Shown: positions 18,260-54,910 of the stretch, piece by piece
Numbering within the stretch: position 1 is the first letter of the stretch
How the letters are laid out: every line of letters begins with the position of its first letter
NCBI GenBank assembly: GCA_947631135.1
Contig: CANRKE010000001.1
Location: forward strand, 8,475 to 72,474
Origin: an uncultured Bacilli bacterium
GTDB lineage: Bacteria; Bacillota_I; Bacilli_A; RF39; UBA660
Reading direction: 5' to 3'
Length of the DNA stretch: 64,000 nucleotides
The notes under the pieces: generated by a model
Database searches by the model: none
What the model saw: only the letters and a program-made list of their open reading frames with translations
What the model was told of the DNA's origin: nothing
Program-made: the position numbers and the translations under genes

Positions 18260-19540
18260 TCATTCTCCTTTTTTTATACAGTGTAATGCATATATTGGTA
18301 TATTTATAATATTTCCATTTTTACTAAAATTATCAAATGTAAAATTATAAGCTTTATTTATATTATTATCTTTTGTAAATTGTGTTATATTTTTTGCTTT
18401 CTTTCTTCTTTCTATATCTATTGGTATTATTTCACCTTGCATATTTTGTATTACAAATGGAACGTTTGCTTTACCTTCACTTTCATAATAGTATACAGGA
18501 TATCCGTTTTCATACAATGTTGATGCTATATAATTTTGTAGTAGTGCATTTAAATGTTTTTGCCATTTTTTATCTAATATATTTTCATAGTCTATGCCAT
18601 ATAAACTAGCAAGTATTCCACTATCATTAATAAATAGTTTGAAACTTGTATCATCTGCAGCAGAAGATATACTTCTACTTATTTTTTTAACTTTTAAGCA
18701 TTTTATATATATTTCATGTTTTTTCATCCAATCAATAGGTCCTTTATATTCACTTTGTCTTGCACCCTTTTTAATAGTACCATATTGAAATTTTTTGTTT
18801 GATTTAAAAAGTTGTTTAGGTAAAGATGTAAATGTTGATAATATTTTTTGTTGGTTACCATCATAATTTTTAAAAATATAGTTATTAATATTTTTAATTA
18901 TTTCATGTTGTTCAAGCAGTACCTTAGACATATCATTAGTATCTAAATATGTTTTTACAACTTTTGGATATCCTCCTATTATTAGATATTTTGTAAAATA
19001 TTCAAGAGCTAAATCATGATATCTAAATTTTTTATCTTTTTTATAACTTTCTTGTATGAATTGCGCAAGTCCCGGTTGTTTATTAACTACTAGGAATTCT
19101 TCAAAATTCATTTTATACATTTTATGGAAAGTTATTTTACCTACATATGATGTATTATTAGTTGGTAAATTTATAGAATTACATATAGATATTACACTAT
19201 AATTATTTTTTGAATCCTTAAATCTTAATAATACTGGTATTAATTTATCATAAGCTTCAGCATTATCAAATATTATTAATGTATCTAAATTATTTATATC
19301 TTTATTATATAATAGACATAACTTTTCAAATAGTCTATCTATATTCATTTCTTTATTTAATAAATTTATTACTAGTGGATTATATTCTAGGTTTATGTAT
19401 ATGTATTGTTCATATTTTTCTTTTCCAAATTTGATTGTTGAATAACTTTTACCAACCATTGTAGAACCAGATAATATTATTGGATTCTTATCTTTTTGTT
19501 TCTTCCATTCTGCAAAATATTTGTCGATTTTTCGTTCCAT
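18260..19540 (-). CDS. AAA+ superfamily ATPase (COG1373/DUF4143-type)
   Basis: Degenerate Walker A GSTMVGKS and Walker B-like IIFDNAE; length and architecture typical of the DUF4143 ATPase family. Paralog of the ORF at 34747-36006. Confidence 0.55.
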   Translation of the reverse strand: MERKIDKYFAEWKKQKDKNPIILSGSTMVGKSYSTIKFGKEKYEQYIYINLEYNPLVINLLNKEMNIDRLFEKLCLLYNKDINNLDTLIIFDNAEAYDKLIPVLLRFKDSKNNYSVISICNSINLPTNNTSYVGKITFHKMYKMNFEEFLVVNKQPGLAQFIQESYKKDKKFRYHDLALEYFTKYLIIGGYPKVVKTYLDTNDMSKVLLEQHEIIKNINNYIFKNYDGNQQKILSTFTSLPKQLFKSNKKFQYGTIKKGARQSEYKGPIDWMKKHEIYIKCLKVKKISRSISSAADDTSFKLFINDSGILASLYGIDYENILDKKWQKHLNALLQNYIASTLYENGYPVYYYESEGKANVPFVIQNMQGEIIPIDIERRKKAKNITQFTKDNNINKAYNFTFDNFSKNGNIINIPIYALHCIKKGE

Positions 19541-19689
19541 AAAGTGTTACCTCCTAACAATTATCTACCTTTATTATAGTTATTTTGCATTTTTAAGTCA
19601 ATAATTTTATATGAATTTTTTAACGTATTAAAAAAATAAATAAGTTTTTGTTCTTATTTATTTTTAGATTATATTAATATTTATGTTTT

Positions 19690-19938
19690 TCATTTGTAAT
19701 GCTTAGTTTTTCCTACTTCGTCTGTTGCTATCGCAATTGCATTATCTAAGAAATTATTTATACTATCTTTATATACCAATAAAACTTTCTTTGTTGTTTC
19801 TATTACTTCTGATGGATCTATTCCTAAAAATTCAGAAATAGATTCTGTTGAAAAATATTTATCATCTATATATCCTAATTTTAATGATATAATTACTGCT
19901 TCTTTAATTGATCTATCATAAATTTTAAAAAAATACAA
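19690..19938 (-). CDS. Small HTH protein resembling a sigma-70 region-4 fragment
   Basis: 82 aa; ...ISEFLGIDPSEVIETTKK... HTH-like; immediately downstream of the sigma factor gene. Confidence 0.35.
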   Translation of the reverse strand: MYFFKIYDRSIKEAVIISLKLGYIDDKYFSTESISEFLGIDPSEVIETTKKVLLVYKDSINNFLDNAIAIATDEVGKTKHYK

Positions 19939-19950
19939 TTTTCAAATTAA

Positions 19951-21735
19951 TTAAATTTTTAATGATTTCTTTTTTGCAAATTTATTTAATAATCTTTTCA
20001 TTTTAGGAACTAATAACCCATAAAATTTGTAAATTTGGTCCTTGGTTAGTTTAGTAGATATTGGATTATTTAAATCTTTTCCATATCGAATTGCGATCAA
20101 ATCTTTTTCTTCTTCATTTAATGTTGTTAACATTTCATCTATTTCTTCTTTACTATAATCTTTAAAAAATTCATATATTGTCCTTGTTTTTTTCTTTTTC
20201 TTGTTTCCATTATTTTGCACTTGCAAATATTTTTTTTGTTGTTTTTCTTTGATGTTTTGTTCTCTAAATCTTTCTATATTTTGTCTCATCTTTTCAGGAT
20301 ATTCCGTACATTCAATTAGTTGTTCTATATATTTAGAATTTCTAATTCTATTTAATGTCCTTGCTTCTTGTTGTTGTATACTCTGTCTTGTTAGTTTGTA
20401 TTTATTTGCAATTTCTTCATAAGTCATTGGTCTTTTGTTATTATAACCAATTCTCAATAATAGTATCTCAATTTCTTTAGGCTTTAAGTGGCATTTTTCA
20501 AGTAAACTATATGTTTGTAAGTGTAAATTATGAGTTATAACTATTTCTTCTGGATTTTTATTATCAGATTGGATAATGTCATTAATTTCCCTATTATTCT
20601 CGTTTCCAATTAATGTATCTATACTTATAGTATCACTTTGAAGTTTATGTAATTTCGTTGCTTCTGATACTGATATACTCATTTCATTTGCTATTTCATT
20701 TATTGTGGGAGTTCTACCTAATTGATCTTCTAATTTTGTTATTGTTTTTTTATATATGCCAAGTTTTTGATATATATAATCAGGTATTCTTATATTTCTT
20801 GCTTTATTAGCAATAGCTCTTGTCATTGCTTGTCTTATCCAATGAATTGCATAAGTTGAAAATTTATAACCTTTATTTACATTGTATTTATCTACTGCTG
20901 TCATTAGTCCTATATTTCCTTCTTGTATAAGATCCAAAAAGGATAATCCCCTATCTGTGTATTTTTTAGCAATACTAACAACTAATTTTAGATTGCTTTC
21001 GATAAATAAATTTTTTGCTTTTTTATCGCCATTTGCTATTCTTGTAGCAAGATCTTTTTCTTGTTGAATAGATAATATTGGATATTTACCTATTTCATTT
21101 AAATATAATTTAATACTATCATTCAATATTAACTCTTTTACTTTGCTATCGTCTAAATCTTCATTTTCTTTAATTTCAATATTGTTTAACATGCAATAAG
21201 CATCTATTGATAACACTAATATATTGTCATCAAATATCTTTTCTACTTTTCCTAAAATTATTTGGTTTCTATAATTTTTAAAGATTAACTCTATTGTTTT
21301 ATTAAACGCATTATTTTTGTTTATTAAATCAATTAATAAATCTGGATCTATAATATAATTATAGGTTCCTAAAAATTCGTTAAACTTATTAATATTTTTA
21401 AAAGATTCTTTATAATTGTTAACATCTATAAAATTTTTATTAATATAATTGTTTAATACATCAAATGATGTTTCTGATTTACTCATTAATTTTTTAACTT
21501 TCTTTGATATCTGTAATTCTATTTTATTTTTTATAAAATCTATATAATCTACATCCCCCTTATATACTAGTTTCGAATTACTTATTTCTTTCATTACTAA
21601 TTCATAAAAATCATTATCATTTATTTCAATATAACTAAATGTAGAATATATATCATTAATAATTGGTAATAATATATTATATATTTTTTTAGAATCTAAT
21701 TGCTTAATGTTATTATAATTAAGATTCATACACAT
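19951..21735 (-). CDS. RNA polymerase sigma-70 family factor, RpoD/SigA-like, atypically long (594 aa)
   Basis: Region 1.2 (KLYLNEIGKYPILS), region 2 (DLIQEGNIGLMTAVDKYNVNKGYKFSTYAIHWIRQAMTRAIANKARNIRIP), region 3 and region 4 (MTYEEIANKYKLTRQSIQQQEARTLNRIR) all recognisable. Flanked by ~190-aa N-terminal and ~130-aa C-terminal extensions. Confidence 0.8.
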   Translation of the reverse strand: MCMNLNYNNIKQLDSKKIYNILLPIINDIYSTFSYIEINDNDFYELVMKEISNSKLVYKGDVDYIDFIKNKIELQISKKVKKLMSKSETSFDVLNNYINKNFIDVNNYKESFKNINKFNEFLGTYNYIIDPDLLIDLINKNNAFNKTIELIFKNYRNQIILGKVEKIFDDNILVLSIDAYCMLNNIEIKENEDLDDSKVKELILNDSIKLYLNEIGKYPILSIQQEKDLATRIANGDKKAKNLFIESNLKLVVSIAKKYTDRGLSFLDLIQEGNIGLMTAVDKYNVNKGYKFSTYAIHWIRQAMTRAIANKARNIRIPDYIYQKLGIYKKTITKLEDQLGRTPTINEIANEMSISVSEATKLHKLQSDTISIDTLIGNENNREINDIIQSDNKNPEEIVITHNLHLQTYSLLEKCHLKPKEIEILLLRIGYNNKRPMTYEEIANKYKLTRQSIQQQEARTLNRIRNSKYIEQLIECTEYPEKMRQNIERFREQNIKEKQQKKYLQVQNNGNKKKKKTRTIYEFFKDYSKEEIDEMLTTLNEEEKDLIAIRYGKDLNNPISTKLTKDQIYKFYGLLVPKMKRLLNKFAKKKSLKI

Positions 21736-21833
21736 ACTCCTATTCTAAATTGAATATTAACTTTTATAATTTTTGATTTCTATTCTATCATCTTTAATTT
21801 TCTAAGTCAATAATAGCAAAGTTTCTTTAATAT

Positions 21834-22415
21834 TTATTTACATTTTTTTATCAAATATAGTTCTTTATTTTGAGATGAAATTGAATCATGCAACATTTTA
21901 TATTCATCTCTACTTGCACTATTTACTGCATTTAATAACATTTTATAAAATTCTAAAGTTGTTTTATATTTTTTACTTCTTATATCTATACATGTTCCTA
22001 TATATTTATCTTGATTGAATGTATGTAAGTTAACTAAACTACTTGATATATCACGAGCTATTATTACATCAAAATCATTTATTGATGGAGTGTTTTCTTT
22101 TTTATTAATCAAATATTCAGGTATATAAATATTATTACTATTTAAATACCCATAAGAACCAATAATTCCATATTTAGATAGTTCATTATTATTAACTTTT
22201 TCTGATAATAAAAATTGATTATATTTCTTTAAGTATAATGACATAGATGTTTGAACACCTTGTACTAATTCTAATATTTTATTATAATTTTCTGGTTTAA
22301 ATCCATATAATTTTATATATTCTAAAAAAATCATAGTATTATATTCTTCGTTATTTAAATCTTTATTATTCATAAAATCAAAACCTCCTAATTTATAGCA
22401 TTTAAAAAGTAGCAA
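21834..22415 (-). CDS. Hypothetical protein
   Basis: Intact ORF; no recognisable motifs; start ambiguous (possibly MNNKDL). Confidence 0.4.
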   Translation of the reverse strand: MLLFKCYKLGGFDFMNNKDLNNEEYNTMIFLEYIKLYGFKPENYNKILELVQGVQTSMSLYLKKYNQFLLSEKVNNNELSKYGIIGSYGYLNSNNIYIPEYLINKKENTPSINDFDVIIARDISSSLVNLHTFNQDKYIGTCIDIRSKKYKTTLEFYKMLLNAVNSASRDEYKMLHDSISSQNKELYLIKKCK

Positions 22416-22636: not shown

Positions 22637-22696
22637 ATTAATATCTCTCCTTCCGCCATGACTAATTTTTAGCCATAGAAATTCCATTGCGTTACT

Positions 22697-52669: not shown

Positions 52670-53519
52670 TTTTTAACACCTCTTCTATTTTTAATATATT
52701 CTCCTTATTTTTTAAAGCATCTATCCATTTTAAACTATTGTTCTCTATATAATCTCTATTTAAAATTTTCTTTTCATATAAATATACATCTTTCAACAAA
52801 TTATATATAATACAATATTTAAATAATAAATGTATATTGTTTTTTTCTTCTTTTTCAAGTTTAATATTATTATTAAAGTAATTTGAAATAAATACTTTTA
52901 TATTATCAATATCATAATTTTTATTTTTTATAAAAAACCACATAATTACTCTTATTATATCAATAAGTCTATTTCCAATATAAACGTTACCAAAATCAAT
53001 TAGAAATATTTTATTATTATTAATTATAATATTTTCCTTTTTTATATCTGAATGAACGATACATTTTGAAAGAGCATCAAGATTTATGTTTTGAATTTCT
53101 TTAAATATTTTATTTATAAAATTTAAATCTTTAGATAAATATTTAGATCTTATTGCTACACTATAATATTGGTTTAATTTGTTTAGTGATTCTTCATTTT
53201 CTTTATGTTTTTTTATTTTTTCATTAAGAGGTATAGAGTGAAGTTTTTTCAATAATAATGCCAAATTTTTAAAAAATGATTTATCAAAAGTATTAGGATT
53301 ATTTCCATATATATATTTTAATATCATTACATTTTTTGAATTAAAAATAAATTTTGAAATTAATTTAGGACTCTCAAAATCATATTTTTTAAGATATTTT
53401 AAAATCTTAATTTCAAAGCTATTATCAATTTCACTCATTCTAATTATATATTTTTGTTTTCTTATTGTAAAAATGTATACATCATTTATGTTATTATTTT
53501 TAATTTTTTCTAAATTCAC
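52662..53519 (-). CDS. Protein-kinase-like fold phosphotransferase (APH/choline kinase/CotS family small-molecule kinase)
   Basis: Brenner motif VHSDIKKEN (HxDxxxxN) and LIDFGN (DFG-like). 8-nt overlap with the downstream FolE2 gene. Confidence 0.6.
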   Translation of the reverse strand: MNLEKIKNNNINDVYIFTIRKQKYIIRMSEIDNSFEIKILKYLKKYDFESPKLISKFIFNSKNVMILKYIYGNNPNTFDKSFFKNLALLLKKLHSIPLNEKIKKHKENEESLNKLNQYYSVAIRSKYLSKDLNFINKIFKEIQNINLDALSKCIVHSDIKKENIIINNNKIFLIDFGNVYIGNRLIDIIRVIMWFFIKNKNYDIDNIKVFISNYFNNNIKLEKEEKNNIHLLFKYCIIYNLLKDVYLYEKKILNRDYIENNSLKWIDALKNKENILKIEEVLKNA

Positions 53520-53575
53520 ATATATTCCCCCTTTTTCTAAAACTTTAGTATATTATTCCAAGAAATCGCTAATTA

Positions 53576-53604
53576 TTCTATTACTTTTACAATTAAATGT
53601 CAAT
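53576..53604 (-). promoter_or_regulatory. Candidate promoter of the six-gene island operon
   Basis: Minus strand TTGACA-17 nt-TAGAAT, ~50 nt upstream of the first gene's AGGGGG RBS. Confidence 0.35.
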
Positions 53605-53708
53605 AGAATACATATTTTTTATAAATTTTTCAGGATAAATTCATGAAATAAATTTATTTGTTATAAATAATTACTAAAAACGTACATAGAAAAACATCTA
53701 TAAAATAT

Positions 53709-53737
53709 TTGCTTTTATGTTACAAATATTGTATAAT
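53709..53737 (+). promoter_or_regulatory. Candidate promoter for the 192-aa gene
   Basis: TTGCTT-17 nt-TATAAT. Confidence 0.35.
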
Positions 53738-53898
53738 AAGTGCTGAAAGGAAAAATTTGTTAGAAAAATAATATTTTAATTAAAAATAAATCGTTCAGTA
53801 AATGATTTATTTAAGATTAGTGTGATGTAATTGATAAAATATAAATTTCATTTTTTAATAATTTTAATATAGTAAAAGTATTAGGAGGTTATAATTTT

Positions 53899-54477
53899 AT
53901 GAAAAAAATAGATTTAGATGAATTCGATGATTCAAATATGTTTGCTAATGATACTATTGAAAATTTAAAAAAAGATTGTAAGAACGGTTTTCAATTATTA
54001 AAAATAATAATCGATGGAAAGCCAAAAAATATTAATCCTCTAACAGAAATACCAGAACCTCAAATGAGATTGTTTGGCTTTTCTGATGCTTTTAATAGTG
54101 TATATTTTGAAACTGAAGAAGAATTAATTGAATGGGCAAAAGAACATAATAGAGATTCTGATAGTATACGCGTAATGGATTATTTAGGAACAGTTGCTGG
54201 TCGTAGTGATGTAATTAGAGTAAAATATCCAGGTGGAAAAGATTTATTATTTACTCATTGTGATGAAGATGGATATGGAATATACAATTATAACAGAAGC
54301 AATTATAGAGGCGAATTTATATGGGAATATAGTTACGGAAGCATTAGTGATATGTACAAAGAATTTAGAGATAGAGGTATTGTGTTTGAAAATGATATCT
54401 ATGCAAAAATTGAAGAAAGTAAAAAAGAATTATTTAAAAAGATTAAAGAAATAAATAAAAAACATTTTAACAAATAA
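53899..54477 (+). CDS. Hypothetical protein (192 aa) adjacent to oriC
   Basis: Intact ORF with GGAGG RBS; no recognisable family. Confidence 0.5.
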   Translation: MKKIDLDEFDDSNMFANDTIENLKKDCKNGFQLLKIIIDGKPKNINPLTEIPEPQMRLFGFSDAFNSVYFETEEELIEWAKEHNRDSDSIRVMDYLGTVAGRSDVIRVKYPGGKDLLFTHCDEDGYGIYNYNRSNYRGEFIWEYSYGSISDMYKEFRDRGIVFENDIYAKIEESKKELFKKIKEINKKHFNK

Positions 54478-54619
54478 TAATTCTTAAATTAATTATAAGA
54501 TGCTTAACTTAAAAAGTATCTTTTTTATTTGATTAATATTTAATTTATAAAATAGTTAATATTACTTTTCCCAGGAAATAAATTTTACTATATGGGGAAA
54601 TAATAATATTTTCCATAAA

Positions 54620-54825
54620 AAATATTTCCCACAGGTATGTGGAAAAAATTGTGGAAAACTAACCCTTATAAAATATGGATAAACTTTAGTTTTCCACAGT
54701 TATCCACAGGCATGTGCAAAAAAAGTTAACAAGTGTGTAAACTTTTTCCACAGGATTGTGCATAACTTATATTTCCCAGTAAAAAATAAGATTTTTTCCT
54801 GTTGAAAACTTTGTGGAAAAAAATT
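54620..54825. promoter_or_regulatory. oriC DnaA-box cluster upstream of dnaA
   Basis: TTATCCACA at 54700-54708. TTTTCCACA variants on either strand at 54638-54646, 54650-54658, 54690-54698, 54744-54752 and 54812-54820. TTTCCCACA at 54625-54633. Confidence 0.7.
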
Positions 54826-54910
54826 TTATTAAATTTGCCAATATATCTTTTTTTTTGTCGATATTTAGTTTAAAATAATTAGTAAGAGATGTAGTAAGGG
54901 AGGTGGGTAT

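Follow-up and report, generated by a model that had tools for sequence, protein, structure and literature searches.

Few bacterial regulators have been studied as well as sigma factors, whose domain plan, running from region 1.1 to region 4, is considered settled. The roles of the promoter-contact residues (W433/W434, Q437, T440, H455, E458, R584, E585, R588, and Q589) are likewise established in the sigma-70 literature. ECF41 and ECF42 are group 4 sigma factors with fused C-terminal regulatory extensions of the SnoaL-like or TPR type, in PhyR a sigma-like domain acts as an anti-sigma decoy, and in the SigO-RsoA system of Bacillus subtilis the sigma function is spread over two polypeptides. 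Here, we analyzed a 64-kb stretch (the window) of a 72.6-kb contig from an uncultured Bacilli bacterium. It carries on its minus strand a sigma-70 family gene (19951..21729) that encodes 592 amino acids (aa) and is followed by an 82-aa open reading frame (ORF; 19690..19938). The gene belongs to a large and so far undescribed family of modular sigma factors from uncultured gut Bacilli of low GC content, and its C-terminal domain (CTD) has been severed. We find it likely, although short of certain, that its product is an accessory, RpoD-derived sigma factor and not the primary one of its host.

The core of the protein resembles the group 1 and group 2 sigma-70 factors (RpoD/SigA), with regions 1.2 (residues 206-238), 2 (244-313), 3 (324-397), and 4 (416-465) in the usual order and with all four Pfam models (PF00140, PF04542, PF04539, and PF04545) scoring above their gathering scores. 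The core, from region 1.2 to region 4.2, is encoded at 20317..21120 on the minus strand; region 4.2 reads TRQSIQQQEARTL, and the RpoD-box sequence LIQEGNIGLM...YKFSTYA...WIRQA is retained. An earlier note on this DNA had described long extensions on either side of the core, and the Pfam boundaries agree with this, with some 200 aa ahead of region 1.2 and another 121 aa beyond region 4. It is in these extensions, in the residue at W433, and in its model scores and separate clade that the protein departs from RpoD/SigA. Region 1.1 (PF03979) gave no Pfam match here, whereas it is present in the SigA of a related metagenome-assembled genome (MAG), L030. In its place stands an unrelated, family-specific N-terminal domain (NTD) of about 190 aa (21160..21729, minus strand), modeled by AlphaFold as all-helical, with about 12 helices (pLDDT, the predicted local distance difference test, of 92.4; pTM, the predicted template modeling score, of 0.84).

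Foldseek found no structural relatives of the NTD in PDB or in BFVD, a library of predicted viral structures, and Pfam gave no sequence match. The sequence-profile matches in PDB were to designed helical repeats and were dismissed as a composition artifact. An NTD profile (A6, with the window as its first row) matched 1025 representatives of 50%-identity clusters at an E value of ≤1e-3, 682 at ≤1e-10, and 166 at ≤1e-30, always at residues 1-188. All of the 123 long NTD-bearing representatives that we examined have a sigma core, and the window protein fits the definition of the family, with a helical NTD of about 190 aa that matches A6 and leads directly into regions 1.2 to 4. Literature searches found no description of an NTD-bearing sigma family; the family is large and undescribed, and its added domains are new.

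We regard the window gene as accessory rather than primary because of its low scores against RpoD models, its separate clade, the absence of region 1.1, of synteny, and of dnaG, the tandem and integrase-adjacent copies in the family, and contact residues that are altered in a window enriched for TTGACA-type promoters. The protein reaches 258 of the 572 bits set as the cut-off of NF006666, the Firmicutes RpoD equivalog, and 236 of the 354 bits set for TIGR02393, RpoD_Cterm. The L030 SigA, our positive control, reaches 596 and 400 bits, respectively, and its gene has a dnaG-like remnant on the 5' side and trmK on the 3' side. A phylogeny of the core, which the earlier note had suggested, was run by neighbor joining with 271 core columns and 100 bootstraps. 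It places the family apart from canonical RpoD in 97 of the 100 bootstraps, in a separate and fast-evolving clade where the window protein groups with P0001 and P0005. The locus is not the usual dnaG-sigA context, as had been noticed before; there is no dnaG in the window, and neither dnaG nor the window's neighbor genes were found at any of about 40 family loci. The contexts of these loci are heterogeneous, with tandem paralogues in L001, L004, L005, and L047 and a tyrosine integrase directly ahead of the sigma gene in L002 and L003. Of the two possibilities originally offered, a primary sigma factor with appendages or a group 2-like alternative one, the clade, the scores, and the missing synteny favor the latter. 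Like the group 2 sigma factors (RpoS, HrdA-D, and cyanobacterial SigB-E), the window sigma is RpoD-like and would probably be dispensable.

The description of regions 1.2 to 4.2 as near-canonical was overstated. A histidine or tyrosine stands at the W433 position throughout the family (W433H in the window), and an alignment with relatives and canonical RpoD reveals the window-specific changes H455Y, E458Q, E585Q, R586S, and R588Q (E. coli numbering). W434, Q437, T440, R584, and Q589 are retained, and the promoter-contact set of RpoD is not conserved as a whole in this copy. Of 121 positions that are conserved in the family, 16 (13%, compared to a median of 4%) are changed in the window protein, 7 of them in region 4; most family members carry housekeeping-type DNA-contact residues, as group 1 and group 2 sigma factors do. 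Near-consensus TTGACA-17-TATAAT sites are found in 7 of the 26 upstream regions of the window, that of the sigma gene included, where 1.6 were expected and the maximum over 200 shuffles was 5. Since promoters of this type are enriched while the window copy is without the -35 contact residues, we infer that another sigma factor with a canonical region 4.2 is present in the host. The window sigma would bind core RNA polymerase through its conserved regions 2 to 4 and could read a -10-like element, given that the residues of region 2.4 are retained, while its -35 and extended -10 readout would be changed or weakened by E585Q, R586S, R588Q, H455Y, and E458Q. It would then direct a subset of genes, with the TTGACA-17-TATAAT promoters of the window being served by a separate canonical SigA.

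The 82-aa ORF, previously noted to resemble a fragment of region 4, does have this resemblance (E value of 2e-5 with the CTD profile) but is not an independent gene. It is the severed, in-frame CTD of the sigma factor, acidic and without DNA-contact residues. About 100 homologues, mostly of 730 to 810 aa, cover 98-99% of the query at 45-56% identity and share a common plan, in which an NTD of about 190 to 200 aa and the sigma core are followed by a conserved helix, a 68-aa module (tail1), a low-complexity linker of about 100 aa, and a CTD of about 100 aa. The window gene has tail1, but the linker is deleted and the CTD lies beyond two in-frame stops in the junction TAA TTA ATT TGA AAA TTG (19936..19953, minus strand). 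The ORF (gene call P0139) is in the frame of the sigma gene, after the TAA and TGA stops, and when aligned with relatives, it represents the CTD from residue 28 on, with its conserved part at 19708..19905. It is 86-89% identical to the CTD of P0001, compared to 62% for the core, 52% for the NTD, and 52% for tail1. Three independent ENA assemblies from other samples (L074 to L076) carry this junction without a single base difference, and the split is therefore real. As shown by the alignment, a deletion in the window species took the linker and the first CTD helices (the first ~25 residues) and left two in-frame stops, and because of this deletion, the CTD is now a putatively cotranscribed ORF that has no ribosome-binding site of its own. 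We considered read-through and simple frameshifting at the junction but rejected both, since there are two different in-frame stops and the adjacent frames are also stopped. From K28 onward, the remnant retains all family-conserved residues except for G42D. Speculatively, the severed CTD would either act in trans or be a recent relic.

It is unlikely that the gene instead encodes the primary (housekeeping) sigma factor of its lineage, in which region 1.1 would have been swapped for the new NTD, a C-terminal appendage would have been gained, and the host would have no SigA besides it. RpoD models do give the best database matches, region 1.2 is present, and there is no other sigma-70 gene within the window; the family is also very large and usually single copy per locus, the canonical -10 and -35 contact residues are retained in most members, and in one relative (L033), the core to which the NTD, tail1, and CTD are attached falls with canonical SigA. 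Such a role is hard to reconcile with an NF006666 score of less than half the cut-off that the L030 SigA passes, with the 97% bootstrap support for a separate clade, with the lack of dnaG linkage and synteny at about 40 loci, and with the tandem and integrase-adjacent copies. W433 is replaced across the family, and the window copy is without E585, R586, and R588 even though TTGAC-type -35 boxes are enriched upstream of the window genes, its own included. Several points nevertheless weigh against an accessory role and a working appendage. No second sigA lies in the window, which covers 64 kb of a 72.6-kb contig, and the sole canonical dnaG-sigA locus that we found, that of L030, is in a MAG with a SigE/K-like tailed sigma factor and no big sigma factor. 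An orthologue shared across the lineage would likewise account for the roughly 1000 clusters, which are mostly single copy per locus, and most members retain canonical region 4.2 and 2.4 residues with which they could read housekeeping promoters. Fast evolution is usual in reduced Mollicutes-like genomes, so that a long branch is, by itself, compatible with a primary role. For the appendage, the high identity of the CTD partly reflects mosaic ancestry and not stronger constraint, translation of the 82-aa ORF from its TTG start with no Shine-Dalgarno sequence is doubtful, and a strain variant (P0140) has 5 residues missing at the N terminus of the remnant. The P0140 deletion also means that, at the sequence level, the junk N-terminal stretch of the remnant is not constrained.

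The probability that the gene is decaying is about as low. The CTD would then have been lost by deletion and nonsense mutations, region 4 would be drifting, and both ORFs would be on their way to becoming functionless pseudogenes. The two stops, the loss of the linker and first CTD helices, the poor start of the 82-aa ORF, the P0140 deletion, the frameshifted alleles in relatives (L077 compared to the intact P0015), and the 13% of changed conserved positions, with their concentration of 7 in region 4, are all what decay would produce. Decay does not explain why 592 codons remain unbroken in DNA of about 22% GC behind a good promoter and Shine-Dalgarno sequence, nor does it explain the substitution rates. 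Compared to L009, the closest relative for which there is DNA and which encodes P0001, the nonsynonymous (dN) and synonymous (dS) rates are 0.087 and 0.65 in regions 2-3, 0.40 and 1.9 in region 4, 0.126 and 0.38 in tail1, and 0.048 and 0.30 in the CTD remnant. The resulting dN/dS ratios lie between 0.13 and 0.33 along the gene (regions 2-3, 0.13; region 4, 0.21; remnant, 0.16), and by this measure, all four segments are under purifying selection. The remnant keeps its conserved residues, as described above, and an architecture without a fused CTD (tail1 only) is also found in 14 of the 123 representatives. The intact ORF at 22% GC, its own promoter and Shine-Dalgarno sequence, and the low dN/dS ratios make us conclude that the locus is probably still functional. 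The dS values themselves are uneven, with 1.9 in region 4 compared to 0.3 at the 3' end, which points to a mosaic history. This fits with L033 (86-2236, plus strand), where a family-type NTD, tail1, and CTD accompany a core that is 65% identical to the L030 SigA and groups with canonical RpoD in the tree, suggesting a chimera formed by recombination between a housekeeping sigA gene and a family member.

We consider it very unlikely that the window sigma is a regulator of a mobile or antiphage island that switches on neighboring defense genes in the way of MzaA, the MZA sigma factor. MzaA (NF041931; PADLOC PDLC02203) is likewise an oversized sigma-70 protein with a long N-terminal extension ahead of regions 1.2 to 4, and its models match the core of the window protein with 237 bits (NCBIfam) and 140 bits (PADLOC). 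The NCBIfam cut-off is, however, 800 bits, and an ordinary SigA scores higher (360 bits), so the match is generic; the N-terminal domains are unrelated as far as tested, and none of the window neighbors matches a model of an Mza partner gene. MZA membership was rejected on these grounds. The next gene downstream, encoding a 426-aa AAA_14 and DUF4143 ATPase (18260..19540, minus strand, between the 82-aa ORF and gpmI), strongly matches PDC-S01, a candidate defense family of PADLOC (338 bits), but it has its own predicted consensus promoter (TTGACT-17-TATAAT at 19601..19573), and neither this gene nor the 193-aa ORF on the other side of the sigma gene recurs beside any of the sigma relatives inspected. 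Some relatives do lie right after a tyrosine integrase and before an AbiEi-like/TPR/R3H protein, and one SigE/K-like relative is within an element with Fic and serine recombinase genes, but most are found among ordinary chromosomal genes. A phage origin was also rejected: tail1 has no relative among the viral contigs of IMG/VR, and phage and plasmid records match the core only and not the NTD or tail.

The sigma factor of the window belongs to a family whose members differ in what follows region 4. Among the 123 representatives, 52 have one tail1 and the CTD, 14 have tail1 only, as in the window, 13 have the CTD only, 28 have neither, and 16 have 2 to 11 tandem copies of tail1, in 12 cases together with the CTD. 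The appendage ranges from 120 to 900 aa across the family. A tail1 scan of species-representative genomes returned 65 loci, all in gut MAGs (rabbit, Hadza human, ruminant, and deer) of uncultured, low-GC hosts labeled as Bacilli, Tenericutes, Mollicutes, or Erysipelotrichaceae. The combination of tail1 and CTD is also found on a second class of sigma factors of about 480 aa that score as SigK/SigE-like. Arrays with up to 11 copies of tail1 between region 4 and the CTD are present in P0268, P0292, and P0347 (about 1415 to 1474 aa) and in L010/L011, L029, L053, L055, and L065. Such arrays are places where assemblies are prone to break; L010 and L011 resemble the halves of one gene, and the same is true of L032 and L024.

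Between region 4 and tail1, the window protein has a helix followed by a Lys-rich connector (20191..20316, minus strand, as placed by the family alignment and the model). The helix carries a motif conserved in the family, P-E-K-S-L-x-N-I-E-x-F-R-E, and is modeled as long, with lower confidence; the isoelectric point (pI) here is 10.0. The tail1 module (KTRTIYEFF...KMKRLL, 19987..20190, minus strand) has the family consensus KLQTIYEYFKDYTKEQVDxMLxKLTEEExxLxxLRYGEDLxNPVxxKLTKEQxxKFYGxLxPKMKRLL. The earlier note had seen in it the start of a second region 4 with a helix-turn-helix (HTH) fold, and the relationship to region 4 is upheld by the family profiles. The window tail on its own gives a nonsignificant match to region 4 (E value of 0.18), but the Pfam model Sigma70_r4 matches 26 of 31 tail1 members, at its positions 2-22, and the tail1 profile matches the region 4.1 helix, and only this helix, in PDB (E value of 0.006). 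An AlphaFold model of the tail, which had also been suggested, shows (pLDDT of >90) three short helices and then, after a loop of 13 residues, a single long helix where a helix-turn-helix would be expected, and the EEKDLIAIRYGKDLNNP segment does not contain a full region 4.2 helix-turn-helix. With this model, all of the top 50 Foldseek matches are to sigma region 4, although they are weak (E values of 0.1 to 1 and root mean square deviations of 5 to 6.5 Å). From the model and the profiles, tail1 is a degenerate derivative of region 4 that has a long helix instead of an intact helix-turn-helix. Matches of tail1 to FakA-like_C, SieB, and PARG were regarded as spurious and due to short helices.

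The CTD is a different module, and the window tail and the 82-aa ORF have no similarity when compared directly. Alone, the ORF gives no match to region 4, and the relationship becomes significant with the family profile of the CTD. This profile (A2) matches region 4 of Thermus SigA in PDB (1rio_H and 1ku3_A; E values of 2e-5 to 8e-5) over the whole domain, positions 19-71 aligning with 5-57. The DNA-contact stretch TRERIRQ is, however, aligned with acidic or neutral CTD residues (e-e-e-e-v-i-e), the recognition helix has none of the basic residues that contact the -35 element, and the pI of the CTD is 4.4 to 5.5 (4.4 for the core of the window remnant), compared to 9.8 for the protein's own region 4. 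Judging from this acidity and alignment, the CTD is a complete region 4-like domain that has lost its DNA contacts and is not a DNA reader. A single PhyR_sigma-like match was seen, with an E value of 0.2, in one member.

Speculatively, tail1 and the CTD would together form a portable protein-protein control device and not a second DNA reader. One could imagine a tethered mimic of region 4 that competes for a region 4 partner, such as the beta-flap, an anti-sigma factor, or an activator. In the fullest form of this idea, which we offer as a possibility with rather low odds, the device is self-contained, with the acidic CTD as the mimic and 0 to 11 tail1 modules as an adjustable spacer, and it would gate the access of the true region 4 to the beta-flap, anti-sigma factor, or activator. 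It could be fused to RpoD-like as well as SigE/K-like sigma factors and could also be supplied in trans as a small protein, which in the window would amount to a two-piece sigma factor. By analogy with ECF41 and ECF42, where a fused C-terminal domain is found instead of or beside a separate anti-sigma factor, the window family may use control in cis, but its core resembles RpoD or SigE/K, and region 4 is itself the source of the appended domains. An acidic region 4-like domain that is sometimes a separate ORF could also work in a manner comparable to PhyR or SigO-RsoA. This is a likeness of idea only, and unlike PhyR, the family has no receiver domain and, beyond the one weak match, no sequence relationship was found.

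The occurrence of the same appendage on two sigma classes suggests an unrecognized form of control of sigma activity in cis. More generally, a family of several hundred to about 1000 clusters from gut bacteria departs from the accepted sigma plan through a new NTD, up to 11 degenerate region 4 modules, and a terminal acidic region 4 without DNA contacts. Its members are now annotated as RpoD/SigA, which may mislead annotation and the metabolic or regulatory reconstruction of uncultured Bacilli. In addition, the repeat arrays break assemblies, and the linker is especially prone to splits, the products of which gene callers report as separate small HTH genes. The copy in the window is truncated and has diverged to some extent from the family, and its own importance is modest.

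Small "proteins" consisting of the CTD only or tail1 only are frequent in the databases. In three of the four contexts that we inspected, they are splits of longer genes in or near the linker (L077, L080, and L083, the last being a tail1-only ORF split from a metallophosphoesterase protein), and in the fourth (L081), we found a stand-alone 190-aa protein. In L077 (5990-6010), represented by six contigs, a single-base deletion (ATGTTGGGC to ATGTGGGC) splits the big sigma gene of one species into ORFs of 745 and 77 aa compared to the intact P0015. The deletion may be a true polymorphism or else a sequencing error, and it falls at the boundary that is also broken in the window. Outside sigma factors, tail1 forms the N terminus of a conserved HTH and metallophosphoesterase protein of about 450 aa (L064:9992-11269; also in L048, L050, L057, L060, L066, and L083). 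The gene for this protein is often directly 3' of a tyrosine integrase gene and is sometimes split into ORFs of 92 and 350 aa.

A recurrent gene set is found around some of the relatives (L002:10001-17777, L003, L024 together with L032, and L029), consisting of a big sigma factor, a 334-aa unknown protein, a protein of about 850 aa with an AbiEi-like N-terminal HTH, TPR, and R3H, and a SigE/K-like sigma factor with tail1 and the CTD; in L002 and L003, the set is directly 3' of an integrase. In L079 (4846-9095) and L080 (2236-6480), the two halves of a penicillin-binding-protein (transpeptidase) gene enclose a SigE/K-like sigma factor, a separate 87-aa CTD ORF, a Fic protein, and a large serine recombinase, an arrangement that looks like an intervening mobile element inserted in that gene.

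The two ORFs of the locus are where they had been placed before, the 82-aa ORF at 19690..19938 and the sigma ORF at 19951..21735 (minus strand), the latter with 594 aa if the first ATG, at 21735, is taken as the start. The ORF itself stands, but the likely product is the 592-aa form. An AGGAG ribosome-binding site (21727..21741 together with the likely true start, minus strand) is 7 nucleotides (nt) 5' of the second ATG, at 21729, and just 1 nt 5' of the first, the product on record (P0137) is the 592-aa form, and relatives begin at the equivalent Met. These three observations make 21729 the likely start. A promoter-like site (TTGACT, 17 nt, TG-n-TAGAAT; 21782..21810, minus strand), found by consensus scan and reading of the sequence, is predicted to serve the sigma gene and lies inside the 98-nt gap 3' of the 193-aa ORF. 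RNA folding of 19600..19700 gives an AT-rich hairpin whose 13-bp stem precedes U7 (19630..19663, minus strand), likely an intrinsic terminator. No terminator-like structure was seen between the sigma gene and the 82-aa ORF, and since the hairpin and U-run come only after the latter, the two ORFs would share one transcript.

The neighborhood, first given as gpmI on one side and rpmE on the other, is correct in outline but incomplete, as it left out the 193-aa ORF and the ATPase gene. The minus-strand order is murA, a gene of the SGNH type, rpmE with its L31 leader, the 193-aa ORF, the sigma gene, the 82-aa ORF, the AAA_14/DUF4143 gene, gpmI, and the S10 ribosomal-protein operon. The 193-aa ORF (21834..22415, minus strand; gene call P0141, 179 aa), which separates rpmE from the sigma gene, is an orphan without a match in Pfam, NCBIfam, or PADLOC, and none of about 80 related loci has a homologue. 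Since long conserved ORFs are unbroken under table 11, genetic code 4 was rejected. An L31-Firmicutes ribosomal leader (RF03156) is located 5' of rpmE, at 22647..22678 on the minus strand. Further along the window, the GC skew changes sign near 54 kb (about 53500..54900) beside dnaA-dnaN...gyrB-gyrA, and for this reason, the replication origin probably lies inside the window.

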